Below the pieces are notes generated by a model. The model saw only the letters and a list, made by a program, of their open reading frames with translations. It did no database searches and was not told where the DNA came from. A program made the translations under genes and the position numbers. From Promethearchaeota archaeon (GTDB lineage Archaea; Asgardarchaeota; Lokiarchaeia; Sigyniarchaeales; SOKP01), in assembly GCA_048941265.1 (NCBI GenBank), contig JBHLNT010000003.1, positions 20,701-84,700 on the forward strand: a DNA stretch of 64,000 bases. The letters are read 5' to 3'. Positions 13,463-34,195 of this stretch are shown here, piece after piece (positions within the stretch are counted from its first letter, which is position 1; each line of letters opens with the position of its first letter).

Positions 13463-14899
13463 TCAATCATGTAAAATTGGTTTTCTTGCAGCTTGGACTG
13501 CATCTAAACGCTTAACTGGAGTAGTATGAGGGGAATTTTTAAGTAGTTCAGGATTAACCTTTGCTTCTTCATAGACATTTAACATAACATTAACAAAATT
13601 ATCTAGAGATGCTTTAGACTCTGTTTCAGTTGGTTCAATCATCATTGCTCCGCTAACAATTAAGGGGAAATAAATTGTTGGAGCATAAATCCCATAATCA
13701 AGAATTCTTTTAGCTATATCTTCGGTAGTTATGTCATTAGGTAAATTTTTATCAGAAAGAACAAATTCATGTTGGCATAATCGTTTATAGGGTAAGTGGT
13801 ATTTTTTTTTTAATTGAACTTGTAAATAATTTGCATTTAAAACGGACATCTCTCCTACACGTCTTAAACCTTGACCTCCTAATGCAAGTAAATATGCATA
13901 TGCTCTTATGATAACACCAAAATTGCCCCAAAAACTTCTCATTCTTCCAATACTACTTTCAGAGCTTTCTCTATATTGAAAACCATCTTTATGTGAAATA
14001 ATACAGGGCTTTGGGAGAAATGGAATCAGATATTCTTTAACTCCCACTGGTCCAGAACCAGGGCCACCTCCTCCATGAGGAGTCGAAAAGGTTTTATGTA
14101 AATTCAAGTGAATAATATCGAATCCCATATCTCTTGGTCGAGAAATTCCTAATATTGGATTTAAATTAGCACCATCATAATAACATAATCCCCCATAATC
14201 ATGAACAATTTTAGTAATATCTTTAATATTCCTTTCAAATAAACCTAATGTATTAGGATTAGTTAACATGATTCCAGCAACATTATCTCCTTCCATTGCA
14301 TATTTAAGAAGATCTAATGGAATCTCTCCGTCGTTATTAGACCTTATTTTAATAATTGAAAAGCCTGCCATCTTTGTTGATGCGGGATTTGTTCCATGAG
14401 CTGATTCGGGAACAATAATCGAAATTTTTTTGTGATTTTTGGTTTCAAAATATTTTTTTATGATTAACAATCCCGTTAATTCACCATGAGCACCTGCAGC
14501 TGGCTGAAATGTAAATCCATCCATTCCCGTTATTTCACATAATAATTTAGATAATTCATTCATTAACTCAAGTGCACCCTGATTTTCTTCTTGTAGCGGA
14601 TGCAATTTAGAAAAATTCGCAAGCCGAGCTATAACCTCATTGATTTTAGGATTATATTTCATGGTACATGATCCTAAAGGATATATCCCCGTGTCGATAC
14701 CATAAGTTTTCTGGCTCAAATTTAAATAATGACGTACGATTTCAATTTCCGGTATGTTAGGTATTGGCAATTCCTCTCGCTGTAATGATTTAGGTAATAA
14801 TTCATCAATATTCACCCTTTCAACGTCCATTTTGGGAATAAAATTATTATATGGATAGTTATAACTCTTTTCAAAGATTAGTTTTAAATTTGAATGCAT
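13463..14899 (-). CDS. gcvPB: Glycine dehydrogenase (decarboxylating) subunit 2
   Basis: PLGSCTMKYNP, QPAAGAHGE, HLNLHKTFSTPHGGGGPGSGP (PLP lysine). Confidence 0.95.
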   Translation of the reverse strand: MHSNLKLIFEKSYNYPYNNFIPKMDVERVNIDELLPKSLQREELPIPNIPEIEIVRHYLNLSQKTYGIDTGIYPLGSCTMKYNPKINEVIARLANFSKLHPLQEENQGALELMNELSKLLCEITGMDGFTFQPAAGAHGELTGLLIIKKYFETKNHKKISIIVPESAHGTNPASTKMAGFSIIKIRSNNDGEIPLDLLKYAMEGDNVAGIMLTNPNTLGLFERNIKDITKIVHDYGGLCYYDGANLNPILGISRPRDMGFDIIHLNLHKTFSTPHGGGGPGSGPVGVKEYLIPFLPKPCIISHKDGFQYRESSESSIGRMRSFWGNFGVIIRAYAYLLALGGQGLRRVGEMSVLNANYLQVQLKKKYHLPYKRLCQHEFVLSDKNLPNDITTEDIAKRILDYGIYAPTIYFPLIVSGAMMIEPTETESKASLDNFVNVMLNVYEEAKVNPELLKNSPHTTPVKRLDAVQAARKPILHD

Positions 14900-16292: not shown

Positions 16293-16700
16293 TCACTGAT
16301 TTTCCTCCTCTTGAATCAATTCTTTATATTGAATTGCTGTAAGCAATGTATCTAATTCAGTTGGCTTATTGAATTTAATTTTTAAAAACCAGCCCTCTTC
16401 ATAGGGGGAGGAATTAATTAATTCGGGCTTATCACGAATTTGGCCATTTATTTCAACGATTTCACCTGATAAAGGCATATAAAACTCGTTTACAGCCTTT
16501 ACAGATTCAATTTCTCCAATCATTCTCCCTTTTTCAAAAATATCTCCAATTCGAGGTAATTCTACATATACCACATCACTAAGTTGATGTTGAGCATAAT
16601 CAGTAACACCCATTACGGCTAAATTGTTTTCTACCCTTACCCATTCATGGGATTTTGTATATTTCAACTCTGAAGGAACATTAAATTCCATTTGAATCAT
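16293..16700 (-). CDS. gcvH: Glycine cleavage system H protein
   Basis: YTKSHEW, G+TDYAQ, ESVKA lipoyl-lysine motif, PYEEGW. Confidence 0.95.
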   Translation of the reverse strand: MIQMEFNVPSELKYTKSHEWVRVENNLAVMGVTDYAQHQLSDVVYVELPRIGDIFEKGRMIGEIESVKAVNEFYMPLSGEIVEINGQIRDKPELINSSPYEEGWFLKIKFNKPTELDTLLTAIQYKELIQEEENQ

Positions 16701-19495: not shown

Positions 19496-19785
19496 AATTT
19501 TTCTTTGTTAGTTATAATATTTCATTAAAAAATTCTTCATTTATTATCAATTCTGTTGATCTTGTTTCATAATATTAATTTAATGCTTTAAAAAAACCAT
19601 CACAAATATTTATAAGATGAAAACTTTAATTTAATTTTTAATTATCATATCAAAAATTAATTACTTTTACTTAATAAGATAAATAAAAAAATATAAATAA
19701 TTATTACGTAAAAGTTTTAGTAATTATTTAAATAAAGGTATAATCATAGTTGTAAAATATATCTGAGGTGGATGTGTAAAAAATT

Positions 19786-21747
19786 ATGGAAAAAAATCAA
19801 AAGCAACGGATAGAAGAACAGAGAAAACGACGAATAGGATACTACGCATGTCAATGAGGGATTAATATTAAAGGCAAAGTTGACTGCAATAAATTAGTAG
19901 AATTTGCGAAAGAACTTGATGATGTAATCGTTTCTAAGACTCATCCATTTTTATGTACTGAAAGTGGCCAAAATCAAATCATAGAAGATATAAAGGAAAA
20001 GAACTTGGATCGAATAGTTGCAACTGCTTGAACACCGCGTACTCATGAACCAATTTATCGTGGCTCAATTGCAAAAACAGATCTTAGCCCTTATTACTTC
20101 CAAATGGTAAATGTCAGGGAACATTGTAGTTGGTGTACAGAAGACACCGAAGAAGCGACAAATAAAGCAAAAATCTTATTACAGAGTGGTATTGAAAGGG
20201 CAAAATTATTAGAGGTTGTTCCTGTTAGAACTGTCCCAGTCGAAAAAGCCACTTTAGTAATTGGTGGCGGAATTGCTGGCATGAATGCGGCACTTGATCT
20301 GGCAAATCAAGGAATTAAGGTATATCTTGTAGAAAAAAATACAACTATTGGAGGCAGAATGGCTCAACTTGATCGAACATTTCCAACAGACGATTGTGCC
20401 ATATGAATTTGTGGTCCAAAGATGCTTGAAGTTAACAGGAATGAAAACATTGAAATTATTTGTAATGCAGAAGTCACGAAGGTAGAAGGTTATGTTGGTA
20501 ACTACGAGATAACGATTGAGAAAAAACCATGGTACACAACAGAGGATTGTAATGGATGTGGAGCATGTACCGAAGTTTGTCCAACATATACCGCGAATTT
20601 TTTTGATGAATTTTTGGGTGCTCGTAAAGCAATTGATATATCATTTGGTCAGGCCGTTCCTTTTAGATATAACGTTGATCGGAATGTTTGTGTCGAATGT
20701 TTTAACTGCGTTGATGCTTGTGAGTTAAATGCTGTAGATTTTAGTCAAACTCCAGAAGATTATAAGGTAAAAGTTGGTACCATAATTATTGCAACTGGAT
20801 GGGATATTTATGAACCATTTGGCGAATATGGATATGGAGAATATGAAAATGTTATTACTCAAGCTCAGCTTGAAAGAGTGCTTGCCCCAAACGGTCCTTT
20901 AGAGGGGCACGTCCATCGCATTTCAGATGATAAAAAACCAAAAGAAATTGTATTTATTCAATGCGTTGGAAGCCGAGATACAGAAAGAACATATTGTAGC
21001 GGAGTTTGTTGCATGCTGGCTTTAAAAAATGCTAAATTGCTTAAAGAAGAATTTCCGGATGCGAACATTACAATTTGCTATATAGATATCAGAACTAATG
21101 AAAAAGGCTTTGAGGAATACTATCAACGCGCCAAAGACTCTGATATTCGCATGATAAGGGGAAAAGTTGGGGAGATTTCAGAAGATCCAGAAACTAAAAA
21201 TATAAATATTCGAGTATATTCTTCGCTGACTGATGAAATTATTAGAATTGATGCGGACTTAGTGGTACTCTCAAGTGCTGCCTTACCATCAAGAGGTACG
21301 GAACAAATTTCCAAAGTTTTAAATTTAGACGCAGATCGAAATGGATTTTTGACTGAATCTCACTTTGGGCTTATGCCCCAAGAAACTAAAGCAAAAGGAA
21401 TTTTTATTGCGGGATTTGCACAGGGACCAAAAGATATTGCCTATTCAGTATCTCAAGCCAGAGCAGCAGCGAGTAAAGTGGCAGAAATAACCTCTGCTGG
21501 AGAAATTGAACTTGAACTTATTACTGCCGAAGTTAAAAAAGATCTCTGTATTTCATGTGGAAGATGTGAAAAAGAATGTCCCAAAGGTGCTATAAAACTA
21601 AGTGATGCTGAAGGAGCTGTTGTGGATGAGATAAACTGTGATGGATGTGGAATATGTGCAACATGCTGTCCAACGCAAGCAATAGATATTCGCTATTTTC
21701 GGGATGAACAACTGTATGCTGAAATTAAAGCACTATTAGAATCTTAA
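19786..21747 (+). CDS. hdrA: Heterodisulfide reductase subunit A, selenoprotein with three in-frame UGA (Sec24, Sec82, Sec207); 653 aa
   Basis: One frame from ATG 19786 to TAA 21747 joins track ORFs 20104 and 20422. TGA at 19855 (CQ*GINI), 20029 (ATA*TPRTHE) and 20404 (DDCAI*ICGPK) match Cys in paralog 26263 (CHCGINI, ASCTPRTHE, NDCSLCILAPK). GAGGTGG upstream. Confidence 0.92.
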
Positions 21748-21769
21748 ACAAAATGGAGGTCTCTATAAA

Positions 21770-22210
21770 ATGCAAAATAATTTCCAAATTATATTGTTTG
21801 CTTGTCTAAAATGAGGTTATGGTGCCGCTGATCTAGCAGGGGTCTCTCGTATGAAATATACTCCTTCAGTTAAAATCGTTAAACTTAGATGTACCGGGAG
21901 GATCGATGTAAAACATATACTATATGCGATAAAATCAGGAGCAGATGGAGTAATGGTCGTAGGATGAAAACCAAATGAATGTCAATTTAAGATCGGGAAT
22001 TTTACAGCTCAGAAGCATGTTGATTTTGCAAATCGAATATTAGAATCTCGAGGATTTGGCAGTCAAAGAGTAAATATGTATTGGTGTAGTAGTGCTGAAT
22101 CAGAAAAATTAGTCAAGAGTGTTGAAGATGCACTAGAAAAAGTACAGAGAGCTGGTCCAAATCCACTTAAAACAGTAAAAAGTAAAGCGAAAGTGAAAGG
22201 AAAAACTTAA
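21770..22210 (+). CDS. mvhD: Hydrogenase/Hdr [2Fe-2S] subunit D, selenoprotein with two in-frame UGA (Sec15, Sec66); 146 aa; absent from ORF track
   Basis: GGAGG then ATG 21770: MQNNFQIILFACLK*GYGAADLAGVSR...RCTGRID...GADGVMVVG*KPNEC. TGA at 21812 and 21965 align with Cys in paralog 29370 (CCNWCSYAGADLAG, TGCHIGDC). Confidence 0.92.
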
Positions 22211-22280
22211 CTACCCTAAATGAATGATTCTTGTAAAAAAATATTAGTTATAAGATGACTTGCCTCGCAAGGGATGGGGT
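22211..22280 (+). promoter_or_regulatory. SECIS-like element (eukaryote/Asgard type) in 3' UTR of hdrA-mvhD
   Basis: AUGAU (22224-22228), stem UCUUGUAA/UUAUAAGA (22229-36/22248-55), A-rich loop AAAAAUAUUAG, 3' UGAC (22256-59) forming the tandem GA core; lower helix CUACCCU/AGGGAUGG possible. Confidence 0.75.
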
Positions 22281-22340
22281 TTTTAAAAAAAAATTTTTTA
22301 CAATTTTTTTAACTAAATTTAAAAAAAGTATGATGGAAAT

Positions 22341-23840
22341 ATGGTTCAAATTAAAAAAAATTATGATTTTAATAATGTAACTTCAAAAATATTAATGGAT
22401 GCTACTTATCAAGCTTCAGAAAATTTTCAAGTTAGAGCTTTTCTTGAAGCAAAAGATGAAATTTTAAAAACTGGCAAATATTCAGAAGAAGAATTCTTCG
22501 AGATTCTTGATGCAATGATCGATGCTGAAACTGAGCGTAAATTAGTTCTCGAAAAAATGAAAGGGATAGAACCATTATTTTTAAATGAACTTGCAGATAA
22601 AATTAATGAATTTCCCCCTGAAAATGTAATAAGAGATGTAGTTTATTTAAAAGAACAAGGATATGTCGCTGAAATTGTTGAAATTAAAACCAAAATGGTT
22701 AAAAAAAAAATTAAGGGTGAAGAAAAAGAAGTCGAAGAAAAAGAATATTTTTACCGTTATCAATTAAAAGATATACATGATGATTTTGTTGAGCATTATT
22801 TTGAGCCAGTTTCAATAGTTTTTGATGCAGGTGTATGTTGTCATTGTGGTTGGTGTTCAGCTATATGTCCAGTGAATGCGATTGAAGTTACGGCAGATAT
22901 TCTAGAAATTGATGATAAAATCTGCATGAAATGTGGATTATGTTTCTCAATTTGCCCACGTTCCTTTTCAATTGATCAAGCTAATAAAAGTATTAAAAAA
23001 TTAGATAACTCCTTAAATTGGTCTGACAAAATAGGCGCTTATGTAAATACGTATTCAGGTTCAACAACCAAGGACGAAATAAAGGAAGTTAGACAAGATG
23101 GCGGTATTGTAACTTCATTGGTTGAATATTTATTAGAAGAGAAACTAGTAGATGCTGTTGTAGCAGTTCAACATTCAGAAGATTTATGGAAACCTGAACC
23201 CATTATAATAGAAGATGTAAAAGATCTTTATAAAACTGCAGGAACTAAATATGCAAATTCTCCTTCCTTGACGATTATCGATAAATGTAAAAAGTATGAT
23301 AAAATTGCTTTTGTAGGAGTTCCTTGTATGATGAAGGCCATTGGTAAAGGATCTCTTTTTCCAAGTGGATTACCCTTCTTTAAAAATATTAAATATAAAA
23401 TAGGATTATTTTGTATGGAGTCATTTCCATATGAAGGAATTATAAAATTAGTCAAGGAACAATTTAATAAGGAAATTCATGAACTAACTAAAATGAATAT
23501 TGGAGGAGGAAAATTTATAATAAAATTAAAGTCTGGCGAGCAATTAGATGTTCCCTTAGCAGATGTACAGAGTTATGCTCGCGATAATTGTCATTTCTGT
23601 GAAGATTTAACTTCAGATTATGCCGATATTTCTGTAGGATCCATTGGATCTCAAGATGGTTGGTCATCGGTAATTACGAGATCAAAAGAAGCTGATGAGA
23701 TCTATAATGATGCAGTTAAAGCTGGGTTAATTGAATCGAAAAGTCTAAAAGAGGTCAAACCCGGCCAATTCTTAGTTGAAAGAATTGCTGGTTCGAAGAG
23801 AACTAAGTGTAAAAAAATAGTGTTGGAAAAAAAAGAATAA
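22341..23840 (+). CDS. FrhB-family protein with ~155-aa N-terminal helical/winged-helix extension
   Basis: 2x CxxCxxCxxxCP, QDGGIVT, VGVPC, GLFCME, CHFCED, ADISVGSIG. Confidence 0.85.
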   Translation: MVQIKKNYDFNNVTSKILMDATYQASENFQVRAFLEAKDEILKTGKYSEEEFFEILDAMIDAETERKLVLEKMKGIEPLFLNELADKINEFPPENVIRDVVYLKEQGYVAEIVEIKTKMVKKKIKGEEKEVEEKEYFYRYQLKDIHDDFVEHYFEPVSIVFDAGVCCHCGWCSAICPVNAIEVTADILEIDDKICMKCGLCFSICPRSFSIDQANKSIKKLDNSLNWSDKIGAYVNTYSGSTTKDEIKEVRQDGGIVTSLVEYLLEEKLVDAVVAVQHSEDLWKPEPIIIEDVKDLYKTAGTKYANSPSLTIIDKCKKYDKIAFVGVPCMMKAIGKGSLFPSGLPFFKNIKYKIGLFCMESFPYEGIIKLVKEQFNKEIHELTKMNIGGGKFIIKLKSGEQLDVPLADVQSYARDNCHFCEDLTSDYADISVGSIGSQDGWSSVITRSKEADEIYNDAVKAGLIESKSLKEVKPGQFLVERIAGSKRTKCKKIVLEKKE

Positions 23841-23856
23841 AAATGATGATATTTAA

Positions 23857-24966
23857 ATGCCAAAAACATTCCAAGATTTAATTGAGGAAGTACATAATAA
23901 AGGTATTTGTCAAGAATGTGGAGGCTGTGTTAGTTTCTGCAGCTCTGCAGAGTATGATGTGATAGGTTTAAAAGATCCTTACACTCCACCAGAATATATA
24001 AACAAAGATAAATGCTTAGAATGTGGTATATGTTATTATATTTGTCCACAAACACATATATTAGATGATGAGCTTAATAAAACTTATAATTTTGCTGATT
24101 TTTCATCAATGCCAATTGGTAATTATGATAATATTTATTCTTGTCAAGCAACGGATAAGGAGTTCTTAGAATATGGAACTGATGGGGGTGTCGTGAATTC
24201 TCTAATTAATTTTTTAATAGAACAAAAATTAATTGATGGAGCTGTTGTTTCGAAAACTGATGCTCCTTTTTCAAGAGAAGCTACTTTTGCCGATAGCAAA
24301 TATGACTTACTAAAGGCATCAGGTGCAAAATTAGACGTTACCCCTCAACTAGATGAGATCCAAAAATTTTGTACATATACTCACTCAATTCCAAAATTAA
24401 ATCATTATAAATTTAAAAAGTTAGCAGTGGTTGGAACACCTTGTCAGCTTTATACAATTAGATGTATGCAGGACCTGGGTGTAACACCATCAGAAAATAT
24501 AGAAATCTGTTTAGGATTATTTTGTTATGAGAACTTTCTCTTTGAAAAATTTCAGATTCAAAAATTTGAAAAGGATTTTAACATAAAATTCTCAGATATT
24601 GTTAAAATAAATATTAAAGAAGATGTAATTTTTCAAATAAAAGATGAGGCAATCGGAGAGAAAATAGTTCATATTCCCTTTAATCATTTAACTGATTATA
24701 TGCGCCCAGCATGTAATGCTTGTGGCGACTTCACAAATATTTATGCCGATATTTCCTTTGGGGGGTTAGGTTCTCCCGATAAATATACAACTGTCATCCC
24801 GCGAACTGAAAAAGGAAAAAACATTTTTTTAAAAGCGATTAATGCGGGAATAATAAATTGTAAAGATATAGATTCTACTAAAAAAAATAAAATGATTGAG
24901 TTAATTTCTCAGTTCTCTCAATCAAAAATAAAACGTAAAGAAAATTTTATTAAGAATCTACAATAG
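23857..24966 (+). CDS. FrhB-family F420-dependent oxidoreductase subunit
   Basis: CQECGGCVSFC, CLECGICYYICP, DGGVV, VGTPC, GLFCYE, CNACGD, ADISFGGLG. Confidence 0.85.
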   Translation: MPKTFQDLIEEVHNKGICQECGGCVSFCSSAEYDVIGLKDPYTPPEYINKDKCLECGICYYICPQTHILDDELNKTYNFADFSSMPIGNYDNIYSCQATDKEFLEYGTDGGVVNSLINFLIEQKLIDGAVVSKTDAPFSREATFADSKYDLLKASGAKLDVTPQLDEIQKFCTYTHSIPKLNHYKFKKLAVVGTPCQLYTIRCMQDLGVTPSENIEICLGLFCYENFLFEKFQIQKFEKDFNIKFSDIVKINIKEDVIFQIKDEAIGEKIVHIPFNHLTDYMRPACNACGDFTNIYADISFGGLGSPDKYTTVIPRTEKGKNIFLKAINAGIINCKDIDSTKKNKMIELISQFSQSKIKRKENFIKNLQ

Positions 24967-24979
24967 AGATGAGGAGATT

Positions 24980-26263
24980 ATAACAGAAACAAATTCAGAA
25001 TCAAAAAGAGAAATTATTCGTAAAAAATTATTTGCCGATACACTTAATTATTTAGATAAAATATATGAGCCAAATTTACGCGATTTATTAAAGAGATGCT
25101 ATCAATGTGGACGATGCAGTGGTGTGTGTCAATTAAGTAAAGTTCAAAAATATACCCCAAGTAAAATTATACAACTCATTTTGGAGGGTTTTGAAGATAA
25201 AGTCATTGAGAGTGGGGCTCTATGGGATTGTCTCACATGTAATCAATGTCTTAAAGACTGTCCAGAAGAAATTAATTTTGCAGATATCGTAAGAATGGCT
25301 AAATGGAAAATGAGACATAATGCTAATCAAAATCCTGATGAACTTATCGCTCATAAAGGTATGTATACTACGATATCAGAAATAATGAGTCGACCATATG
25401 TTCAACCAGAACGCTCTCTTGATTGGGTTCCGAAAGGATGTAAAGTATCAAATAAAGGAAATATTTTATATTACGTTGGATGTTTACCCTTTTTTAATTA
25501 TGAGTTTGAAAATTCAACCTCGATTGCAGAAAGCACTTTAAAAATAATATGCCAGATTGAAAAAGAAACGATCGTAGTTTTTAAAGAAGAGATATGCTGT
25601 GGGCACGATATTTATTGGGGACAAGGAAAACTAAAGACTTTTATAAAGTTAGGTAAAAAAAATATAGAGATGTTCGAAAAAGCGGGAATATCTAAAATCA
25701 TAACTGCATGTGCCGAGTGCTATAGAACATTTAAAGTAGATTATCCAAACATTTTTGATGATTTTAATAATAAATTTCAGGTCCAACATATTATTGAATA
25801 CATTTATGAAAATTGGAAACAACAAAAAATTAAATTTAAAAATCCAAAAGAGAGTTCTGAAAGAATTCCTTTTACATATCACGATCCTTGTAGATTAAGC
25901 AGATTTTTACCCAAGGAGAACACTATAAATGAAAAGGCTCGTGAAATTTTTAAGGAATTTAAAGATTTAGGGTATGATTTTGAAGAAATGAAGCATAATA
26001 AAAAAAATTCTCTTTGTTGTGGGGTGAGCAGTTGGATGAATTGTAATGAGAAATCCAAAGCGCTGCGATATAAACGTATGTTAGAAGCGAAGGCCGCTGG
26101 AGATATTATGCTTACTTCTTGCCCTAAATGTAAGATACATCTGTCTTGCCTTCAAGATGACTTTGAAGATATAGCTTCTATAGAAATTATGGACTTTTCT
26201 GAATTTTTAGTTGATCATATTGAGATAATTAAACCTGGAAAGGATACGGAGGCTAAAAAATAA
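24980..26263 (+). CDS. HdrD/HdrC-B-like Fe-S protein (2x[4Fe-4S] + CCG domains); probable ATA start
   Basis: Frame open from 24932. First cluster motif CYQCGRCSGVC lies mostly upstream of the track GTG (25124); CCG, TACAECY, YHDPC, CCG, SCPKC follow. Confidence 0.8.
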   Translation: MTETNSESKREIIRKKLFADTLNYLDKIYEPNLRDLLKRCYQCGRCSGVCQLSKVQKYTPSKIIQLILEGFEDKVIESGALWDCLTCNQCLKDCPEEINFADIVRMAKWKMRHNANQNPDELIAHKGMYTTISEIMSRPYVQPERSLDWVPKGCKVSNKGNILYYVGCLPFFNYEFENSTSIAESTLKIICQIEKETIVVFKEEICCGHDIYWGQGKLKTFIKLGKKNIEMFEKAGISKIITACAECYRTFKVDYPNIFDDFNNKFQVQHIIEYIYENWKQQKIKFKNPKESSERIPFTYHDPCRLSRFLPKENTINEKAREIFKEFKDLGYDFEEMKHNKKNSLCCGVSSWMNCNEKSKALRYKRMLEAKAAGDIMLTSCPKCKIHLSCLQDDFEDIASIEIMDFSEFLVDHIEIIKPGKDTEAKK

Positions 26264-29200
26264 TGGAAGGATCGGTGGTGGTTATTGGTGGAGGAATCGC
26301 CGGGATTCAAACATCATTGGATTTAACCGAATTAGGTTTTAAAGTTTATTTAGTAGAACGAAACCCATCAATTGGAGGGAGGATGGCTCAGCTTGATAAA
26401 ACATTTCCTACTAACGATTGTAGTTTGTGCATACTTGCTCCTAAAATGGTTGAGGTTTTCAGAAATCCAAATATTGAACTTATGACGTACCATGAGATCA
26501 AAAAAGTAGAAGGAAAACCAGGTGATTTTACGGTCACAGTCCTTAAAAAACCACGATATATTGATGAAACGAAATGTAAAGGCTGTGGAGACTGCGCTGC
26601 TAAATGTCCCAAAATTGAAGTTCCTAATCTTTTCGATATGAATTTAGGCAAAAGAAAATCAGTTTACATTCCATTTCCTCAGGCAGTCCCTCCTATTTAT
26701 CTAATTGATCCTGAAATTTGCTTAAAATTGACTAAAGGAGTTTGTGGAGTCTGTGAAAAAGTTTGTCAAGCTGAAGCAATTGATTATGAGCAAAAACCAA
26801 AAGAAATTAAACTAAAAGTTGGTGCCATCGTCGTTGCAACTGGATTTGATATGCCTGCTGAAGAATTAACATCAAGATGGGGGTATCAATATGAAAATGT
26901 GGTAAGCGCTCTCGAATATGAAAGAATTCTATGTGCTTCTGGTCCTTTTGGAGGTCATGTGTTGAGACCAAGCAATCAAGAAGAACCCGAAAAAATTGCA
27001 TTTATTCAGTGTGCCGGTTCAAGAGATCTTCATGAAAATGTTCCTTATTGTTCAAGTGTGTGTTGTATGTACACCGCAAAAGAAGCTATTATTACAAAAG
27101 AACATTCTGATAATTCAAATTGTTATGTATTTCGGCATGATATTAGAGCTTATGGGAAAAATTTCTATGAATTCACCCAAAGAGCCCAAGAAGAATATGG
27201 AGTGCAATATTTTCAAACTAAAATTAGTACTATTGAGGAAGAACCTGAATCAAAAGATCTTATTATTCATTATGAAGATTTAAGAACTGGAAAATTTAAT
27301 GATTTTAAGGCAAATTTGGTGGTATTAGCAACTCCATTAGTACCTTCTAAAGGAACAGAAGAATTAGCTCAAATATTAGGTGTTGAAATAGACAAATATC
27401 ATTTTTTCAAAGAAAAAACCTTTTTTGATAAATCTTTATCATCTAAAGATGGAATATTCTTATGTGGTTTTTGTCAAGGACCTATGGATATTCCAGAAAC
27501 AGTGGCAGATGCCAGCGGGGTAGCATCTCAAGTTGCAAATCTACTAAATTCTGTGAAATATACTGAAACTAAAGAAAAAGTTTTTGAATTACCTGAAATA
27601 GAGGTAAAAATCACAGATGAGCCACGAATTGGAGTATTAGTCTGTCATTGCGGAATTAACATTGGTAAATATGTTGATGTATCCGAAGTAGTTGATTATA
27701 TTGGAAAGTTACCATATGTCGTACATTGTGAGGCCAATTTATACTCATGTAGTTCTGATTCTCAAGCAAGAATTAAAGAGGTAATTCAAGAAAAAAACTT
27801 AAACCGATTTATTGTAGCATCTTGTACACCAAGAACTCATGAAGCGTTATTTCAAGAAACCTGCCAAGAAGCAGGTCTAAATAAATACTTATTTGAAATG
27901 GTTAATATACGCGACCAGTGTTCATGGGTTCATATGGGTGATAATAAGGGAGCTACTGCTAAAGCAAAAGATCTCATAAGAATGGCCGTCGCAAAATCTC
28001 GATTATTAAAGCCGCTAACGGAGACTAAATTAGATATCACTCCTACTGCGCTAATAATTGGTGGAGGCATATCTGGGATGACAGCCGCATTAAATATTGC
28101 TAATCAAGGATTTAAAGCATATCTTGTAGAAATAGAGGACAGATTAGGAGGTAATTTGAATAATCTTAATGTTCTATATCCTATTCAAGAAGATGCAACA
28201 ATATTTTTAAATAATATTCAAGATAAAGTTAAGAAACATAAAAATATCGAAATTTTCCTAAAATCTCAAATTAAAGAGATTAAAGGTTATATCGGAAATT
28301 ATAATGTCTCGATTGCCACCAATAAAAAATCTCAAGATTTTAAAATTGGAACAATTATCGTTGCCACTGGCGCTCAAGAATTAAAACCTAATGGCGAGTT
28401 CCATTATGATAAAAAGAATAAGAATATTCTTACTCAGTTAGAGCTAGAACAAAAGTTAAAAGAAAAAGATAAATCATGGCTAGATAATATTAAACGAGTT
28501 ACAACCATTTTATGTGTTGAAGCCAGACAGAAAGAGGGAATTACTTATTGTTCTAATGTGTGTTGTGGCGTTAGCATTAAGAATATGAGTATTTTAAAAG
28601 AATTAAAGCCAGATCTCGAAATGATTATGCTCTATAGAGACTTTCAAATGGCGAAAAAGGAATTTGAAGAATATTATCGAGAACGAAGGAAAGATGCGAT
28701 TTTCCTACGATATGATCTAGATCAAATACCAATAATTTCGAAGAAGAGCAGCAAACCAGAAAAATATGAGATAAAAGTTTTTGATACTAATCTACAAGAC
28801 ACAATTGAATTTGAGACAGATTTAATTATATTATCTACTCCTATGATTCCAGCTGATAATTTAAGTGAATTAGCCAAAATGTTAAAAGTTCCATTAGATA
28901 AAAATGGCTTTTTCTTAGAAGCTCACGTGAAGCTAAGGCCATTAGATTTTGCTACGGACGGAATTTTTCTTGCAGGATGTGCCCAATGGCCAAAAAATAT
29001 ACAAGATTCAATTGCTCAGGCTAATGGAGCTGCTGGAAGAGCAAGTCGATTTTTAAGTGCGAAAACAATAAAAACCTCAGGATTAATTGCAGAAGTAAAT
29101 CCTGAAAGATGTATAGGTTGTGGAAAGTGTGAATCTGTGTGTCCATATAATGCAATAGAAATTAAAGAGGCATCAATGGAATTCGAAGATATCAGCTTAG

Positions 29201-29343
29201 TGCTAAAAAAATCATTTATTAATTCGGCATTATGCAAGGGGTGCGGAACGTGTGCCGCTACCTGTCCGAATGGCGCCATTTCAGTAAAACATTATGATTT
29301 TGACCAAATTTTTGCTATGATTGAAACATATTTATTGGATTAA
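26263..29343 (+). CDS. hdrA: Large HdrA-like flavoprotein (two FAD modules, all-Cys)
   Basis: Two VIGGG.AG FAD motifs, DKTFPTNDC, CSSVCC, internal CHCG/CTPRTHE domain, C-terminal ferredoxin. Confidence 0.9.
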   Translation: MEGSVVVIGGGIAGIQTSLDLTELGFKVYLVERNPSIGGRMAQLDKTFPTNDCSLCILAPKMVEVFRNPNIELMTYHEIKKVEGKPGDFTVTVLKKPRYIDETKCKGCGDCAAKCPKIEVPNLFDMNLGKRKSVYIPFPQAVPPIYLIDPEICLKLTKGVCGVCEKVCQAEAIDYEQKPKEIKLKVGAIVVATGFDMPAEELTSRWGYQYENVVSALEYERILCASGPFGGHVLRPSNQEEPEKIAFIQCAGSRDLHENVPYCSSVCCMYTAKEAIITKEHSDNSNCYVFRHDIRAYGKNFYEFTQRAQEEYGVQYFQTKISTIEEEPESKDLIIHYEDLRTGKFNDFKANLVVLATPLVPSKGTEELAQILGVEIDKYHFFKEKTFFDKSLSSKDGIFLCGFCQGPMDIPETVADASGVASQVANLLNSVKYTETKEKVFELPEIEVKITDEPRIGVLVCHCGINIGKYVDVSEVVDYIGKLPYVVHCEANLYSCSSDSQARIKEVIQEKNLNRFIVASCTPRTHEALFQETCQEAGLNKYLFEMVNIRDQCSWVHMGDNKGATAKAKDLIRMAVAKSRLLKPLTETKLDITPTALIIGGGISGMTAALNIANQGFKAYLVEIEDRLGGNLNNLNVLYPIQEDATIFLNNIQDKVKKHKNIEIFLKSQIKEIKGYIGNYNVSIATNKKSQDFKIGTIIVATGAQELKPNGEFHYDKKNKNILTQLELEQKLKEKDKSWLDNIKRVTTILCVEARQKEGITYCSNVCCGVSIKNMSILKELKPDLEMIMLYRDFQMAKKEFEEYYRERRKDAIFLRYDLDQIPIISKKSSKPEKYEIKVFDTNLQDTIEFETDLIILSTPMIPADNLSELAKMLKVPLDKNGFFLEAHVKLRPLDFATDGIFLAGCAQWPKNIQDSIAQANGAAGRASRFLSAKTIKTSGLIAEVNPERCIGCGKCESVCPYNAIEIKEASMEFEDISLVLKKSFINSALCKGCGTCAATCPNGAISVKHYDFDQIFAMIETYLLD

Positions 29344-29369
29344 ATTAAAGAAAAAATGAGAGAGAAAAA

Positions 29370-29807
29370 ATGTCAAAAACCAAAAAAAAACCCAAAAATC
29401 CTGATTTTAATCCTGAAATTTTAGTTTTTTGTTGTAATTGGTGTTCTTACGCTGGAGCAGATCTTGCTGGTGTATCAAGATTCCAATATCCTCCCAATAT
29501 GAGAATCGTCCGTGTTATGTGTTCTGGCAGAGTTGACCCGACATTCGTTTTAAAAGCTTTAAAGGATGGAGCAGATGGAATTTTGATAACAGGATGTCAT
29601 ATTGGCGACTGCCATTATATTTCAGGGAACGAATATACCCGAGATAGATTTAAAAAACTTCATGAAATTATTATTAAACAGTTAGGAATTGATGGAAAAC
29701 GCGTAAGACTCGAATGGGTTAGCGCATCAGAAGGAAAGCGATTCGCCGATTTAATTACTGAATTTACAAACCAAATTAAAGAATTGGGCCCTCTTAAAGT
29801 ATTTTAA
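29370..29807 (+). CDS. mvhD: MvhD/FlpD [2Fe-2S] subunit, Cys form
   Basis: FCCNWCSYAGADLAG, RVMCSGRVD, GCHIGDCHY, WVSASEG. Confidence 0.93.
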   Translation: MSKTKKKPKNPDFNPEILVFCCNWCSYAGADLAGVSRFQYPPNMRIVRVMCSGRVDPTFVLKALKDGADGILITGCHIGDCHYISGNEYTRDRFKKLHEIIIKQLGIDGKRVRLEWVSASEGKRFADLITEFTNQIKELGPLKVF

Positions 29808-29821
29808 AAAAAAGATTTTTT

Positions 29822-31054
29822 TTAGCTAATTAATGACTCTAAAATTAATTCAACTAAATCAACCATCTTTATATTCGAGTTAAGTTCTTTAATTGCATCA
29901 GATAAGTTTCGATAACAAAATGGACAAGTACTTACTAAAATAGAAGCTCCTGTTTCCTCTGCATCTTTAATCCTGTTTTTAGCCATCTCGAGAGACAATT
30001 CTGGAAATCCTTTCTTTACGCCACCTCCTGCCCCACAACACATGGCTGCTTCACAATTAGTTTTCATCTCAGTTAGATTCGAAATTTTGCTTAACAATTC
30101 TCTTGGAGTGAGGTATAATCCCATATGTCGTCCAATATGACACGGATCATGATATGTGGTTTTGACATCCAAATTTTTTAACTTAATACCTTTTTGGGCT
30201 ATAATATTTTTTATATAATCGAATGAATGGAATATCTCAATCCCCTCAAGCCTATCTCCATAATCTTTTTTAAAGGTTCTATAGCATCCTGCACAACTGG
30301 TTATAATCTTTTTCACTCCTCTTTCTTTAAATAACTTAGCATTTTGTTCTGCCACTGTGTTAAATGCTTTTTTGTCTCCGGTTCGCATTGCTACACTTCC
30401 ACAACATACTTCTTTTTCTCCGAAGATTGAAAAGTCTATTCCTAAATTTTTTAATATTTTAGCGGTAGCGACGGCAACATTTTGTATTTCAGAGGTTAAT
30501 GCTGCTGTACATCCTACGAAATATAGGATATCAGAACTCTCATTTTGGGCGTTCTTAACTTCAAAATCCAATTGCTCTGTCCATTTAAGTTTGTCTTTAT
30601 TATCTCGTTCATAAGGATTTAATAATTCTACCATCGCTTTATTCATTGGAACCTGAGATTCTATCGGAAAACCAGCTTCTACTAAATCTGCTCTCAGGGC
30701 TTCATATACTTTCACATGATCAGTCCATCTGTGAGTTATAAAATCGAAATTATCATTATGGGCGTCAAAACAAAATTCATAACAAGCTCCACAGAGTGTA
30801 CACTGAAATATAATATCGCTTATTTCTTGGCTTAATTGCAAATCCCCCCAAAAAAGTCCTCTTAAAATAATATTTTTCCCCCGAGAAAAAAACGTATCAA
30901 ATTTTGGAGTTATATCAGTATTATATACTGGACAAACATAGTAAATTCCTTTCGAAGGCCAATTAGCAACCCGGCATTGTCCGCATTGAACGCACGATAA
31001 TGCGGCATCCTTAAGTTCGCTTAAATTTTTTAACGAATTTTGGGTTTCATTCAT
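29822..31054 (-). CDS. HdrD/GlcF-like Fe-S oxidoreductase (CCG domains)
   Basis: CVQCGQC, CTLCGAC, CCG, SCAGC, YHDPCH, CCGAGGG, CPFC. Confidence 0.85.
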   Translation of the reverse strand: MNETQNSLKNLSELKDAALSCVQCGQCRVANWPSKGIYYVCPVYNTDITPKFDTFFSRGKNIILRGLFWGDLQLSQEISDIIFQCTLCGACYEFCFDAHNDNFDFITHRWTDHVKVYEALRADLVEAGFPIESQVPMNKAMVELLNPYERDNKDKLKWTEQLDFEVKNAQNESSDILYFVGCTAALTSEIQNVAVATAKILKNLGIDFSIFGEKEVCCGSVAMRTGDKKAFNTVAEQNAKLFKERGVKKIITSCAGCYRTFKKDYGDRLEGIEIFHSFDYIKNIIAQKGIKLKNLDVKTTYHDPCHIGRHMGLYLTPRELLSKISNLTEMKTNCEAAMCCGAGGGVKKGFPELSLEMAKNRIKDAEETGASILVSTCPFCYRNLSDAIKELNSNIKMVDLVELILESLIS

Positions 31055-31066
31055 TTTTCACACCTC

Positions 31067-32572
31067 TTAATAATTATCTCCTACATAAAACTTTCCAGGG
31101 CTCAATATTTTATTGGGGTCTAAAGCCTTCTTAATTGAAATCATAAAATTATAATAGTCTTCTGTTACCGCTCCTGAATCTATTAATGCCCTGCCAATTA
31201 TCTCGCCCATCCAATAGTGAATCCCACCTAATTTTTTTATCTGTGTAATGATTAAATCTTTCCATAAATCATGCTGAATTTTCCTATTTTCAATCTTACT
31301 TGCTATTGCCAATCCTCCAGCGACATCAATATAATTGGGATATACTCCAAATGCTATGAAGTCAGCACCTCCTCCTCCAAGGTCCCCCATTTTCTGAAAA
31401 TTCATTTTTACCCAATTTTCATATACTTCTATAAAATCAGGTAATTGATAAGTAGGACATTTCAAACATGTTCCCATACTAAAAACTAAAGGGCCCAGCC
31501 AAAGCATATGGCCCCATTGCCATCGTCCATCTTCCTCATAAAACCATTTGCCTAAATTCCCCTCCTCTACGGTATCACCTAATTTTTTCACTTCAAGCTC
31601 ATTCGCAACCTTTTCAATCCTTTCAACATTATAATCTAATTGTTTTTGAGTATCTGCGACAGTTGTATAAAACAAAATACTTCCCCTTACCTTAGCTTTA
31701 ACTAAATTCTTAGTAGTCCCCATCGCTTTTAAATTCCTAACCATAGATAAAGGAAAATAAAAAAAATCATGTAAAGGTAATTTTTTTTGTTGCCATCCCA
31801 TCATTAATTGTGCTGTTCTTAGTGGTTCAGACATCTCAGAGGTTTTCCTAATTTCATAGGTACTATATGCGGCATATTCCGGAAGAGGATATAAATTTAA
31901 AGAAGCTTTGGTTTTTATCCCATGAATTCCCACATCTCCTAAAAATAAACCAGAATAATCGGGCCCCAATCCAAATCTTGTAAACGCCTTTTCACAAAAA
32001 GAATTAGCCTTGGCTCCTGTATAGATAATCTCTCCGGTAGGCAATACGACTTCTAAGCCAACACATTGTTCAGTAACATTTCCATACATTGCAGCTCCGC
32101 CACCTCCCACCGTATTATTTGAAAGGCCACCTCCAATGGTTGCAGAAAATCCAGAAGCGGGTCCTGTTGAGCCTGTATAATAGCCAATTCCCACCTTACT
32201 CAACTGTTCGCATAATTCACTCCACGAAATTCCAACCTCAACCGTAACAATTCGATTCTTCTCGTCAACCTCTAAAATTTTATTCATACGAGTCAAATCG
32301 ACTACTATTCCTCCATTTCCGATTGGTTTTGCACCACCCGTTAAATCTGCTCCATTACCTCTAGGTATAACTTTTATTTTAAATTGATTTGCCACTTTTA
32401 GGATCTCAGACACTTCATTTGGAGTTCCAGGTCTCACGACTATATCAGGAATTCCTTGTAAAACCATATCACAATTCATTGAATAAGAATAACAAATTGG
32501 TTCTGAATCAGTAATATGCTTTGTACCGACAATATCCTCAATCATTTCAAACACATTCTGAATTTCGGTCAT
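31067..32572 (-). CDS. FAD-linked oxidase/dehydrogenase, GlcD/D-lactate dehydrogenase-like (copy 1)
   Basis: PRGNG...TGG FAD motif, ATIGG, GLEVVLPTGE, KKALDPNKILSPGK. Confidence 0.85.
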   Translation of the reverse strand: MTEIQNVFEMIEDIVGTKHITDSEPICYSYSMNCDMVLQGIPDIVVRPGTPNEVSEILKVANQFKIKVIPRGNGADLTGGAKPIGNGGIVVDLTRMNKILEVDEKNRIVTVEVGISWSELCEQLSKVGIGYYTGSTGPASGFSATIGGGLSNNTVGGGGAAMYGNVTEQCVGLEVVLPTGEIIYTGAKANSFCEKAFTRFGLGPDYSGLFLGDVGIHGIKTKASLNLYPLPEYAAYSTYEIRKTSEMSEPLRTAQLMMGWQQKKLPLHDFFYFPLSMVRNLKAMGTTKNLVKAKVRGSILFYTTVADTQKQLDYNVERIEKVANELEVKKLGDTVEEGNLGKWFYEEDGRWQWGHMLWLGPLVFSMGTCLKCPTYQLPDFIEVYENWVKMNFQKMGDLGGGGADFIAFGVYPNYIDVAGGLAIASKIENRKIQHDLWKDLIITQIKKLGGIHYWMGEIIGRALIDSGAVTEDYYNFMISIKKALDPNKILSPGKFYVGDNY

Positions 32573-32689
32573 AAATTATCCTATTTTTTCAGATTATTTT
32601 TATAAAATAATTTTTCTATATTTTCTTTTTTTTGAATTTCTATTATAACATTAAACCATTTAAATATATCTAAGGTGATGTAAAAGTTT

Positions 32690-34195
32690 TTAATATTTTT
32701 CCCCTAAATAGAATTTGCCGGGACTTAATATTTTATTGGGATCTAGAGCTTTCTTAATTGAAATCATGAAATTGTAATATTGTTCTGTAAGTGCACCAGA
32801 ATCGATTAAAGTCCTGCCTATAATTTCTCCCATCCAATAATGAATTCCCCCCAATATTTTCATTTGACTAAGGATTAAATCTTTCCATAATTCGTGTTGA
32901 ATTGATCTGTTTTCTATTCTGCTAGCAACTCCAAGACCACCAGCCACATCAATGTAATGTGGATACACCCCAAAAACAATAAAATTGGCACTCCCTCCCC
33001 CAATTTCTCCTAGTATTTTAGAATTTTTTTTTACCCATCCTGTATATACCTCTTCAAAAGCAGGTAATTGATAGGTGGGACATTTTAAGCAAGTAGCTAA
33101 AGTAAAGAGATGGGGCCCCATCCAACTTGCATTTGCCCATTGCCATCTTCCATCTTCCTCGTAGAACCATTTTCCTAAATTCCCTTCTTCAACAGTATCA
33201 CCTAATTTTATTATCTCTGTATCTTTTGCAATCTTTTCAATCCTTCCAACATTAATATCTAATTGTTTTTGAGTATCTGCCACAGCGGTATAAAATAGGA
33301 CACTACCACGCACTTTAGCACTTATTAAATTCTTTACAATTTTTTGCATTTTGAACTGACTTACAAAAGATCGTGGATAATAATAAAAATCATGTAAAGA
33401 TAATTTTTGATCTTGCCATCTCATCATTAAATTTGCTACTCGTTCCGATTCAGACATTTCCGGTGTTTTTTTAATTTCATATGTACTATAGGCAGCATAT
33501 TCAGGAAGCGGATATAGATTTAATGATGCCTTGGTTTTCACTCCATGGATTCCTATATCTCCTAAGAATATCCCTGTATAATCGGCTCCTAATCCAAATC
33601 TCGTAAAAGGTTTCTCGCAAAACGAGTTTGCTTTTGCACCTGTATAAATTATCTCTCCAGTGGGCAATACCACTTCTAATCCCACGCAATGTTCTGTAAC
33701 AGCTCCATACATCGCAGCTCCTCCTCCTCCCACGGTGTTATTTGAGAGTCCGCCTCCAATGGTCGCAGAAAATCCAGAAGCTGGACCAGTTGATCCAGTA
33801 TAATATCCTATTCCTATTTTACTCAGTTGTTCACATAATTCACTCCACGAAATTCCAACTTCAACTGTCACAACTCTATTTTTCTCATCAACATCCAATA
33901 TTTTATTCATGCGAGTTAAGTCTAAGACAATTCCCCCATCTCCAATAGGTTTTGCACCACCAGTTAAATCCGCCCCATTACCACGGGGAATTATCTTTAT
34001 ATTATATTCATTTGCTACTTTTAATATTTGGGATATCTCATCAGAATTACCTGGACGTATAACTATCTCCGGTATCCCTTGTAAAACCATATCGCAATTC
34101 ATCGAATAGGAATAACAAATTGGCTGTGAATCCGATATATATTTTGATCCAACAATAGCTTCAATCTTTTCATAAATCTTTTGAATTTGAGACAT
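32690..34195 (-). CDS. FAD-linked oxidase/dehydrogenase, GlcD/D-lactate dehydrogenase-like (copy 2)
   Basis: Same motifs and length (501 aa) as 31067-32572; tandem duplicate. Confidence 0.85.
   Translation of the reverse strand: MSQIQKIYEKIEAIVGSKYISDSQPICYSYSMNCDMVLQGIPEIVIRPGNSDEISQILKVANEYNIKIIPRGNGADLTGGAKPIGDGGIVLDLTRMNKILDVDEKNRVVTVEVGISWSELCEQLSKIGIGYYTGSTGPASGFSATIGGGLSNNTVGGGGAAMYGAVTEHCVGLEVVLPTGEIIYTGAKANSFCEKPFTRFGLGADYTGIFLGDIGIHGVKTKASLNLYPLPEYAAYSTYEIKKTPEMSESERVANLMMRWQDQKLSLHDFYYYPRSFVSQFKMQKIVKNLISAKVRGSVLFYTAVADTQKQLDINVGRIEKIAKDTEIIKLGDTVEEGNLGKWFYEEDGRWQWANASWMGPHLFTLATCLKCPTYQLPAFEEVYTGWVKKNSKILGEIGGGSANFIVFGVYPHYIDVAGGLGVASRIENRSIQHELWKDLILSQMKILGGIHYWMGEIIGRTLIDSGALTEQYYNFMISIKKALDPNKILSPGKFYLGEKY

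Follow-up and report, generated by a model that had tools for sequence, protein, structure and literature searches.

A Lokiarchaeal hdrA-vhuD Selenoprotein Operon in Which a Single 3′ LokiSECIS Very Probably Serves Five UGA Codons

Organization of the locus

Two consecutive open frames, hdrA and then vhuD/mvhD, are found on the plus strand of the window (the whole stretch of 64,000 nucleotides that was analyzed) once TGA is read as selenocysteine (Sec), whereas translation table 11 breaks both into fragments (Table 1). As an earlier note on this DNA had proposed, the frames are interrupted by TGA alone, at codons 24, 82, and 207 of hdrA and codons 15 and 66 of vhuD. The product of the first has the homology and architecture of HdrA, carrying FAD and 4Fe-4S Pfam domains and matching positions 1-642 of the 777 in the NCBIfam HdrA2 profile NF040770 with 770.5 bits; this profile also covers a fused MvhD domain, and its 1100-bit cut-off is not reached. 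The second protein scores 142.6 bits against Pfam FlpD (PF02662; cut-off 22.3) and 165 bits against NCBIfam VhuD (NF045873), under the cut-off of 215; this FlpD/MvhD domain, in which UGA occupies two Cys columns ∼50 codons apart, identifies it as a Sec-containing VhuD/MvhD.

The junction between the genes is the 22-nucleotide gap with a GGAGG motif that had been described. The two reading frames are offset by +1, and synonymous variability reaches a minimum of 0.50 at the 3′ end of hdrA, against a gene mean of 0.75. Archaeal transcription termination occurs at oligo-T, and such tracts follow the operon; however, runs of T5 to T7 are also present within hdrA, so oligo-T by itself cannot mark the transcript end.

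Table 1. Features of the hdrA-vhuD locus, in window coordinates
Feature	Position	Strand	Basis or remark
Shine-Dalgarno-like GAGGTGGA, 5′ of the hdrA ATG	19765-19772	+	Sequence reading; putative function
hdrA, heterodisulfide-reductase subunit A homologue, 653 aa	19786-21747	+	Stop TAA
hdrA Sec codons (UGA)	U24 19855-19857; U82 20029-20031; U207 20404-20406	+	
Intercistronic gap, 22 nt	21748-21769	+	GGAGG at 21755-21759, vhuD ribosome-binding site
vhuD/mvhD, delta subunit of methyl-viologen-reducing (F420-non-reducing) hydrogenase, 146 aa	21770-22210	+	Stop TAA
vhuD Sec codons (UGA)	U15 21812-21814; U66 21965-21967	+	
Candidate SECIS	Core 22224-22258; with flanking helices 22213-22280	+	
SECIS lower stem, 5′ strand ACCCUA	22213-22218	+	MFE fold, covariation
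LokiSECIS core AUGA, directly 5′ of main stem	22224-22227	+	
LokiSECIS 9-bp stem	22228-22236 with 22248-22256	+	
LokiSECIS apical loop, 11 nt, AAAAAUAUUAG	22237-22247	+	
LokiSECIS GA directly 3′ of stem, then C	22257-22258	+	
Mini-hairpin CUUGC-CUC-GCAAG, directly 3′ of core	22259-22271	+	MFE fold
SECIS lower stem, 3′ strand UGGGGU	22275-22280	+	Fold
Oligo-T tracts (T5 22280, T6 22294, T7 22304)	22280-22310	+	Possible archaeal terminator signal

UGA codons at conserved cysteine columns

All-Cys paralogs of both genes lie further along the window, and the claim that each TGA sits at one of their cysteines was borne out for 5/5 codons, three in hdrA (paralog at 26263-29343) and both in vhuD (paralog at 29370-29807). 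Alignment of homologues places U at the same columns in 15/15 (U24), 15/15 (U82), and 16/16 (U207) HdrA orthologs, and U15 and U66 of VhuD are kept in 16/16. The hdrA product is thus recognizable as a Sec-containing HdrA, with UGA at conserved Cys columns that include the canonical position near 200. TGC or TGT codons at the Sec sites, which the earlier note had listed as evidence that would count against its reading, occur in none of the 16 loci, and neither do frame disruptions there. Columns 57 and 621 of HdrA alternate between U and C among orthologs (U in 6/15 and 1/16, respectively) and, together with 24, 82, and 207, account for the five positions that were described as Sec in 2016 (PMC4989117).

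Elsewhere in the window, TGA serves as an ordinary stop, as had been asserted for gcvPB and gcvH: GcvPB (13463-14899, minus strand) reaches position 485 of the 487 in its profile before the TGA, and GcvH (16293-16700, minus strand) position 128 of 129. The same had been said of a radical SAM gene at 42213; the open reading frame there (42213-43115) does end in TGA, although its product has no NCBIfam match at 1e-20. Overall, the window has 51 non-overlapping open reading frames of 100 aa or more, which end in TAA (37), TAG (10), or TGA (4), one of the last being a fragment of hdrA.

Anatomy and class of the SECIS element

A lokiSECIS is defined by AUGA, a 9-bp stem, an 11-nucleotide loop, and GA (rarely AA) 3′ of the stem, and every feature in the list given in section 11 of PMC4989117 is present in the core element. 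The stem, UUCUUGUAA/UUAUAAGAU, is made up of 8 standard pairs and a closing U-U. The loop, AAAAAUAUUAG, is A-rich in its first five bases (AAAAA) and ends in a G preceded by an A, and the element sits 13 nucleotides past the vhuD TAA, close behind a UGA-containing coding sequence. Covariation supports the fold: in the main stem, 9/9 pairs change on both sides with 92.3% of cells paired, and in the lower stem 4/4 pairs do so with 79.8% of cells paired. The element belongs to neither of the other familiar classes. An Rfam scan of the window found no family at its gathering threshold, the eukaryotic SECIS_1 (RF00031) included, and the asymmetric GAA_A bulge of canonical euryarchaeal elements is absent from the fold, in which the main stem is uninterrupted.

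One element per operon

The proposal of a single downstream SECIS agrees with a search of the whole window, both strands and filters off, using the covariance model R1, which returned one match (92.6 bits, E 1.9e-22), the runner-up reaching only 16.9 bits (E 0.83). It agrees equally with the orthologs, where each of the 16 loci (∼4-6.4 kb) contains exactly one SECIS just after vhuD, located between -21 and +13 nucleotides relative to the end of the vhuD frame; in some, the vhuD stop is itself the UGA of the AUGA core. The hdrA-vhuD gap ranges from -11 to +28 nucleotides, and the hdrA stop is TAA in 14 orthologs and TAG in one, in addition to the TAA of the window, but never UGA; no U occurs among the last 12 HdrA residues. 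An frhB-like gene lies 3′ of the SECIS in 16/16 loci, so the element may be intercistronic rather than part of a 3′ UTR.

Sec machinery and other elements in the genome

Part of the Sec machinery that the earlier note had suggested looking for is encoded in the genome. SelD (185 bits) has one in-frame TGA and is thus Sec-containing; EFSec (470 aa) has as its best PDB match the SelB of Methanococcus maripaludis (4ac9, E 3e-89); and SepSecS is represented by its C-terminal 193 aa only, at a contig edge, with 196.5 bits. PSTK was not found in the genome by profile searches with TIGR03574 and PF08433, the matches being two proteins of 177-179 aa whose sequences read as adenylylsulfate (APS) kinases. 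Nor was tRNA-Sec found by Rfam RF01852 and two custom structure-based scans of the genome; three sub-threshold RF01852 matches (31-34 bits) are ordinary tRNAs, partly intron-bearing. With an assembly that is 91% complete, is spread over 361 contigs, and has only 10-12 tRNAs detectable by ARAGORN, the missing tRNA-Sec and PSTK are weak evidence.

The genome has ten lokiSECIS matches in all, and those whose upstream sequence was examined each follow a frame that contains UGA. Two further candidates, C137:10403 and C331:26096, were set aside as chance matches, lacking both an R1 report and a convincing upstream frame. A third, C334:33483, also lacks an R1 report, yet a one-UGA frame ends at the match.

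On another contig lies a member of an Asgard protein family in which two UGA codons always stand side by side (UGA-UGA) and every gene has a lokiSECIS of its own. The family seems not to have been reported, although the supplements of PMC4989117 and PMC11227280 may list it, and its invariant UGA-UGA pair is of a kind that escapes searches based on homology to Cys. Foldseek found no significant PDB match for a model of the family (best E 0.34); the highest-ranking weak matches are β-grasp proteins (ubiquitin-like, MoaD-related, Urm1), which serve as a lead only.

A shared SECIS and its alternatives

In our judgment, the locus is very probably a bicistronic selenoprotein operon in which one 3′ lokiSECIS serves all five UGAs, and the genomic predictions of the shared-SECIS model that could be tested all held, in support of this interpretation. 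We infer co-transcription of the two genes, actual insertion of Sec, and long-range action of the element, including action past a stop codon. The two cistrons would lie on one mRNA, where the eukaryote-like, kink-turn-type lokiSECIS located 13 nucleotides after the vhuD stop would recruit an archaeal/eukaryotic-type EFSec carrying Sec-tRNASec. The upstream UGAs, at 259, 412, 1820, 2195, and 2369 nucleotides from the element, would then be read as Sec. The hdrA stop, being UAA, is no substrate for the SECIS and would therefore terminate translation normally, with ribosomes restarting at the GGAGG-led vhuD, 22 nucleotides downstream.

It is conceivable, if improbable, that hdrA has a recoding signal of its own, in the form of a different RNA element within the coding region or the 290-nucleotide 5′ leader, or of a trans-acting factor, and that the SECIS behind vhuD serves vhuD alone. 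In Methanococcales, hdrA and vhuD do each have their own SECIS (PMC4989117), and R1, being built from type-I elements, could fail to detect a different second signal such as an SPS-type element; the SelD locus of this genome (L008) has no R1 match, so other element types do escape the model. There is in addition a dip in synonymous variability, to 0.50-0.62, around residues 117-134 of HdrA. A second SECIS serving hdrA, which the earlier note had recognized as fatal to its proposal, was nevertheless not encountered between 19496 and 22200 on the plus strand, where R1 gave no match above noise and a scan for the AUGA-stem-GA/AA pattern, in the stricter version adopted after a loose one had returned 353 matches, yielded no candidate. 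No stable local fold stands out downstream of any UGA (z from -0.77 to +1.34 against shuffles), those after the three hdrA UGAs included, and synonymous variability after these codons is normal (0.70-0.78 versus a mean of 0.75). Mariotti et al. likewise describe no further RNAz match in these genes (PMC4989117).

Read-through of TGA that does not depend on a SECIS, or its local reassignment to, e.g., Cys or Trp, with the hairpin acting as a terminator or stability element, is highly improbable. Several public gene calls for another UGA-containing family do place W at the UGA positions, but this results from the gene callers' choice of table and not from biology. Against such an explanation, TGA ends gcvPB and gcvH where their profiles end, and the in-frame TGAs are confined to Cys-aligned columns; the element has an invariant AUGA/GA core, an A-rich loop, and covarying stem pairs, recurs only behind UGA-containing genes, and is found in a genome that encodes SelD, EFSec, and SepSecS. 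Barely credible is the notion that both genes are pseudogenes or artefacts of assembly or sequencing, the all-Cys paralogs doing the work. Although these paralogs are indeed present in the same window, the same TGA columns recur in 15-16 metagenome-assembled genomes that are independent of one another, in proteins 75-84% identical, and neither TAA nor TAG breaks the otherwise intact frames.

Relation to known systems

The shared-SECIS model is already known, having been set out almost word for word by Mariotti et al. (2016, Mol Biol Evol, PMC4989117), who described tandem HdrA-VhuD pairs of Lokiarchaeota with one common lokiSECIS; Huang et al. (2024, ISME J, PMC11227280) repeated it and extended it to Asgard archaea. 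The pairs described in PMC4989117 have the same gene order and very short or overlapping junction as the present one, the same multi-Sec HdrA (with five possible Sec columns) and two-Sec VhuD, and the same single AUGA/9-bp/11-nucleotide-loop/GA element after vhuD, and their hdrA stop is never UGA. Nothing essential differs, and the present locus is a further instance.

The same source bears out the statement that HdrA and VhuD/MvhD are known selenoproteins of Methanococcales as well as Lokiarchaeota. Methanococcales and Methanopyrus share with the present locus the two selenoprotein families and their gene order, a VhuD with two Sec residues ∼50 codons apart and one 3′ element, and a vhuD element with AUGA and GAC around an extra stem (PMC4989117). 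They differ in having a one-Sec HdrA with its own SECIS and elements with the kink-turn-like GAA_A bulge, in contrast to the uninterrupted main stem seen here. A lokiarchaeal SECIS (SLoki) showed no more than background activity in M. maripaludis (PMC11881835 and its supplementary Table S2), and a Methanococcus reporter assay of the kind that had been suggested is therefore expected to fail.

Eukaryotic type-I SECIS elements (RF00031) and SelP mRNAs resemble the present system in the 3′ position of the element, its action at a distance, and the presence of several UGAs per message, as well as in an AUGA...GA core with a predicted kink-turn fold and unpaired A's in the apical loop. The present element has a shorter, 9-bp stem, and its message has two cistrons parted by a real stop. 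To our knowledge, no SBP2 is known for the lokiSECIS system, and only two L7Ae-family genes are found in the genome. SelP, moreover, uses two SECIS elements (PMC4989117) versus the one found here. Our survey of the literature found no transcript, proteomic, or compatible-host functional or reporter evidence for lokiSECIS recoding, and a search for RNA sequencing runs that cover 19700-22330 of the window likewise came up empty.

A possible larger module

In 23/25 and 12/12 of the lokiSECIS examined, the sequence immediately after the core folds into a hairpin of 3 bp or more, against means of 9.6 and 3.7 for shuffled flanks. These figures come from constrained folds of each sequence with shuffled-flank controls, which were used because the mini-hairpin aligned poorly under the covariance model (63.5% of cells paired). 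Such a conserved mini-hairpin, enclosed by the lower stem in vhuD elements, is possibly new: neither it nor its enclosure appears in the main texts of PMC4989117 and PMC11227280, whose supplements may show flanking helices.

Tentatively, and with the expectation that it will more probably prove wrong, we raise the idea that the shared element is a larger module, in which a kink-turn stem-loop and an obligatory GC-rich mini-hairpin 3′ of the GA(C) would be joined by the lower stem, in the vhuD type, into a three-way junction. The message may also be longer, hdrA-vhuD-frhB, with the element acting from between two of its cistrons. If the extra architecture were needed for long-range recoding across cistrons, it could explain the inactivity of the lokiarchaeal SECIS in the heterologous reporter, where the predicted fold energy of that element is only -6.9 kcal/mol. 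The hairpin and lower stem suggest constructs that span 22213-22280, beyond the core alone.

Biological significance

The arrangement was described in 2016 and has since been catalogued in hundreds of Asgard genomes, and so this locus adds an instance and is not a discovery. A lone 3′ element recoding as many as six UGAs, over ∼2 kb and past a genuine stop, would have no known parallel elsewhere. The arrangement bears on the origin of the eukaryotic SECIS in Asgard archaea, a significance that was itself recognized in 2016.

Reading frames and predicted selenocysteine codons

The hdrA and vhuD (mvhD) genes are both fragmented when translated with table 11. The observation that the two frames are broken only by TGA, three times in hdrA and twice in vhuD, is confirmed when that codon is read as selenocysteine (Sec, U). 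HdrA corresponds to positions 1-642 of the 777 in the NCBIfam HdrA2 profile and VhuD to positions 647-773 of this profile, which is a fused model; VhuD also has a clear Pfam FlpD/MvhD match. The vhuD frame is +1 relative to that of hdrA, and the two are therefore separate cistrons rather than a fusion, divided by a junction of 22 nt that does contain the GGAGG described in the earlier note. Also as described there, each of the five TGAs has a Cys opposite it in the all-Cys paralogs (26263-29343 and 29370-29807). The proposal that TGA remains an ordinary stop holds for GcvPB and GcvH, where the terminal TGA falls at the last profile residues of each, but the ORF at 42213, offered as a further example, could not be confirmed as a radical SAM gene. 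TGA terminates 4 of the window's 51 long ORFs, one of them an hdrA fragment. The operon is contained in a larger redox cluster (22341-37364).

Features of the hdrA-vhuD operon, its SECIS element and the surrounding redox cluster (window coordinates)
Feature	Position	Strand	Details
hdrA	19786-21747	+	653 aa, stop TAA; frame clean with TGA read as Sec
hdrA in-frame TGAs	19855, 20029, 20404	+	codons 24, 82, 207
vhuD/mvhD	21770-22210	+	146 aa, stop TAA; frame clean with TGA read as Sec
vhuD in-frame TGAs	21812, 21965	+	codons 15, 66
Lower stem	22213-22218 with 22275-22280	+	ACCCUA with UGGGGU
lokiSECIS core	22224-22258	+	AUGA, 9-bp stem, 11-nt loop AAAAAUAUUAG, GA
GC-rich mini-hairpin	22259-22271	+	CUUGC-CUC-GCAAG, directly 3' of GA(C)
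frhB-like genes	22341, 23857		redox cluster
CCG-domain HdrB-like gene	25124		redox cluster
All-Cys HdrA-like protein	26263		1026 aa; HdrA segments permuted and duplicated
All-Cys MvhD	29370		follows the 26263 HdrA-like gene in the cluster
Further HdrA-like gene	34605		919 aa

A probable shared SECIS element for two cistrons

The lokiSECIS, a type-I eSECIS-like RNA element of Asgard archaea, was described by Mariotti et al. (2016; PMC4989117) as a 9-bp stem with AUGA ahead of it and GA behind it, capped by an 11-nt loop in which bases 1-5 are mostly A and the final base is a G preceded by A. All of these features are present in the window's element, the core of which starts 13 nt past the vhuD stop; Rfam holds no matching family. 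A covariance model, R1, was built from 24 elements (the window's own, those of 16 orthologous loci and those of 7 other genes of the same genome) and run over both strands of the whole window with filters off. It returned a single match (92.6 bits, E 1.9e-22), which is a self-match by construction, so that the informative outcome is the absence of a second: the runner-up, at 30205 on the other strand, scored 16.9 bits (E 0.83), and nothing rose above noise on the + strand from the hdrA leader to the lokiSECIS. This agrees with the claim of one candidate SECIS and no separate 3' SECIS for hdrA. Oligo-T runs (T5-T7) lie downstream of the element.

A hidden hdrA-specific recoding signal was also looked for in RNA folding and codon variability. 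For all five UGAs, the 70 nt that follow are no more stably folded than shuffled sequences (z-scores -0.77 to +1.34). In an alignment of HdrA codons from 14 genes (the window's and 13 orthologs, leaving out two near-duplicates and one truncated gene), relative third-position entropy over the 25 codons past U24, U82 and U207 is 0.70, 0.78 and 0.74, the gene mean being 0.75. Marked dips occur only around residues 117-134 and over the last 24 codons (0.50), where the dip fits the overlapping vhuD start region. The internal one (20134-20187; synonymous-site variability 0.50-0.62 versus the mean of 0.75) adjoins no UGA and may be due to chance.

The same arrangement recurs in 16 orthologous loci (VhuD identity 75-84%) from Promethearchaeota/Asgard metagenome-assembled genomes, identified by a scan of species-representative genomes. 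Every one carries a lokiSECIS, positioned -21 to +13 nt relative to the vhuD frame's end, and gives exactly one R1 match; downstream of the element, every one also has an frhB-like gene together with a second paralog. Fifteen cover hdrA, one locus being cut before it; the junctions range from -11 to +28 nt and the hdrA stops are TAA (14) or TAG (1), with no U in the last 12 residues, so that no hdrA ends in UGA. In the comparison of Cys/Sec columns that the earlier note had proposed, HdrA positions 24, 82 and 207 are Sec in every covering sequence (15/15, 15/15 and 16/16). Column 57, a Cys in the window's HdrA, is Sec in 6 of 15, and column 621 in 1 of 16. In 7 of 17 loci (L016-L019, L022, L027 and L029) an in-frame UGA at the SECIS closes off the vhuD frame, either that of the AUGA core itself (six loci) or one abutting it (one locus). 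This UGA is presumably the real stop, and termination at the AUGA would agree with a minimum-distance rule for recoding. PMC4989117 had already pointed out such a stop within AUGA for VhuU.

Taken together, the published shared-SECIS model is the best-supported reading, and we hold it with considerable confidence. The hdrA and vhuD cistrons would be carried on one mRNA, on which a single 3' kink-turn-type SECIS, with EFSec and Sec-tRNASec, would direct Sec insertion at the five UGAs, 259 to 2369 nt upstream; the UAA would terminate hdrA, and vhuD would start afresh from its own ribosome-binding site. The earlier note's interpretation of one downstream SECIS acting across two cistrons and a working UAA is supported, but it had appeared in print in 2016 and was repeated in 2024 (Huang et al.; PMC11227280). 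Mariotti et al. described five possible Sec positions in HdrA, a single lokiSECIS after VhuD, an HdrA stop that is always UAA or UAG and a stop codon inside AUGA. A Methanococcus reporter would be uninformative in the form first proposed, because in M. maripaludis a lokiarchaeal vhuU SECIS gave 21.1 ± 6.4 mU/mg, about the same as the no-SECIS control (22.1 ± 5.1), as reported by Peiter et al. (2025; PMC11881835).

A possible refinement of the lokiSECIS fold

In the predicted fold of the window's element, a lower stem encloses both the core and a mini-hairpin, producing a three-way junction. Each element was folded with the main stem alone fixed, and compared with shuffled flanks, a comparison that overstates significance because the sequences are related. 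In a first set of 25 elements (one with an atypical core left out; 200 shuffles), a hairpin with 3 bp or more was found at the site in 23 (shuffles: mean 9.6, maximum 16) and the three-way junction in 20 (mean 6.2, maximum 13). In a second set, of 12 elements that follow genes of an unrelated family, all 12 have the hairpin (mean 3.7, maximum 7) and 6 the lower stem, a count that does not exceed the highest shuffle value, also 6. The lokiSECIS flanks examined come from loci L014-L034 and L058-L068, and the stem sequences vary between loci: hairpin stems include CCU/AGG, CUC/GAG, ACCC/GGGU, AGGA/UCCU and AAUGG/CCAUU, and lower stems CCCC/GGGG, GCUCC/GGAGC and UCCUCC/GGAGGA, with double changes at 4/4 pairs of the lower stem. 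The main texts of PMC4989117 and PMC11227280 make no mention of the mini-hairpin or junction, although a 'lower stem' and an 'internal loop' are part of the model of Huang et al. The hairpin and lower-stem closure in vhuD-type elements are a possible refinement of the lokiSECIS.

Selenocysteine machinery and other candidate Sec loci

The assembly that holds the window (5.01 Mb, 30.5% G+C, 361 contigs, 91% completeness) contains part of the Sec machinery. It encodes SelD, with one in-frame TGA; a 470-aa EFSec, the best solved relative of which is M. maripaludis SelB (4ac9, E 3e-89), with human eEFSec next; and, at a contig edge, the C-terminal 193 residues of SepSecS. PSTK and tRNA-Sec were not found in this 361-contig, 91%-complete assembly, absences that say little given that ARAGORN detects just 10-12 tRNA genes in the entire 5.0 Mb; the tRNA-like matches seen carry introns, so that most tRNA genes have escaped detection or assembly. 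Two L7Ae-family genes only are present, in line with the reported absence of SBP2.

R1 identifies ten elements genome-wide at E < 1e-4. They lie behind four hdrA-vhuD pairs (contigs C301, C138, C350 and C251), a UxxU peroxiredoxin-like gene and several small UGA-containing frames. The three further pairs (C138:1-1804, L030; C350:3882-8000, L034; C251:9391-10986, L043) have one SECIS each; the 3' core of the C251 element is atypical, reading UA in place of GA/AA, and the C251 VhuD has one UGA only, the second position being Cys. On C349 (L033:1751-2026, +), a frame of 91 aa has a hydrophobic segment at its N terminus and a single UGA, set in the motif G-U-G-C. A lokiSECIS (64.4 bits) follows 14 nt downstream, and the frame's Pfam matches are sub-threshold only.

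A probable selenoprotein family with adjacent UGA codons

Contig C159 carries tandem paralogous genes of 146 and 168 aa (L031:2374-2811 and 1778-2281, both on the - strand; same coordinates on C159). Each has two adjacent in-frame UGAs (HAD-UU-AD and SGC-UU-EK), in-frame conservation that carries on past the pair and its own lokiSECIS 6-8 nt past the stop. A third tandem gene (L031:1414-1629, -; same coordinates on C159) encodes 72 aa with CxxC pairs and four in-frame UGAs, and has its own lokiSECIS downstream (R1, 70.6 bits). Neither this frame nor the UU paralogs match Pfam, and an AlphaFold model of the UU family (pLDDT 78.9) gives weak, beta-grasp-like matches.

A protein search returned 202 relatives of the UU family, and Asgard archaea account for all those that are named. 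The majority stop short at the first UGA; in nine entries of full length the pair appears as WW, the product of gene calls that read TGA as Trp. Across 201 genomes from the phylum the family occurs in 38, of which 36 are among the 40 genomes in the same family-level clade, and a lokiSECIS directly follows the gene in 11 of 11 related loci. Among 54 matches listed, 53 have 2 or 3 in-frame TGAs, the sole exception being a fragment of 66 residues that lies at the end of a contig; no Cys form is therefore seen among the matches listed. The family is absent from the selenoprotein families named in PMC11227280 and in PMC13188914, a review from 2026 with a tally of 11 archaeal families. It is likely to represent a new, obligately Sec-Sec selenoprotein family.
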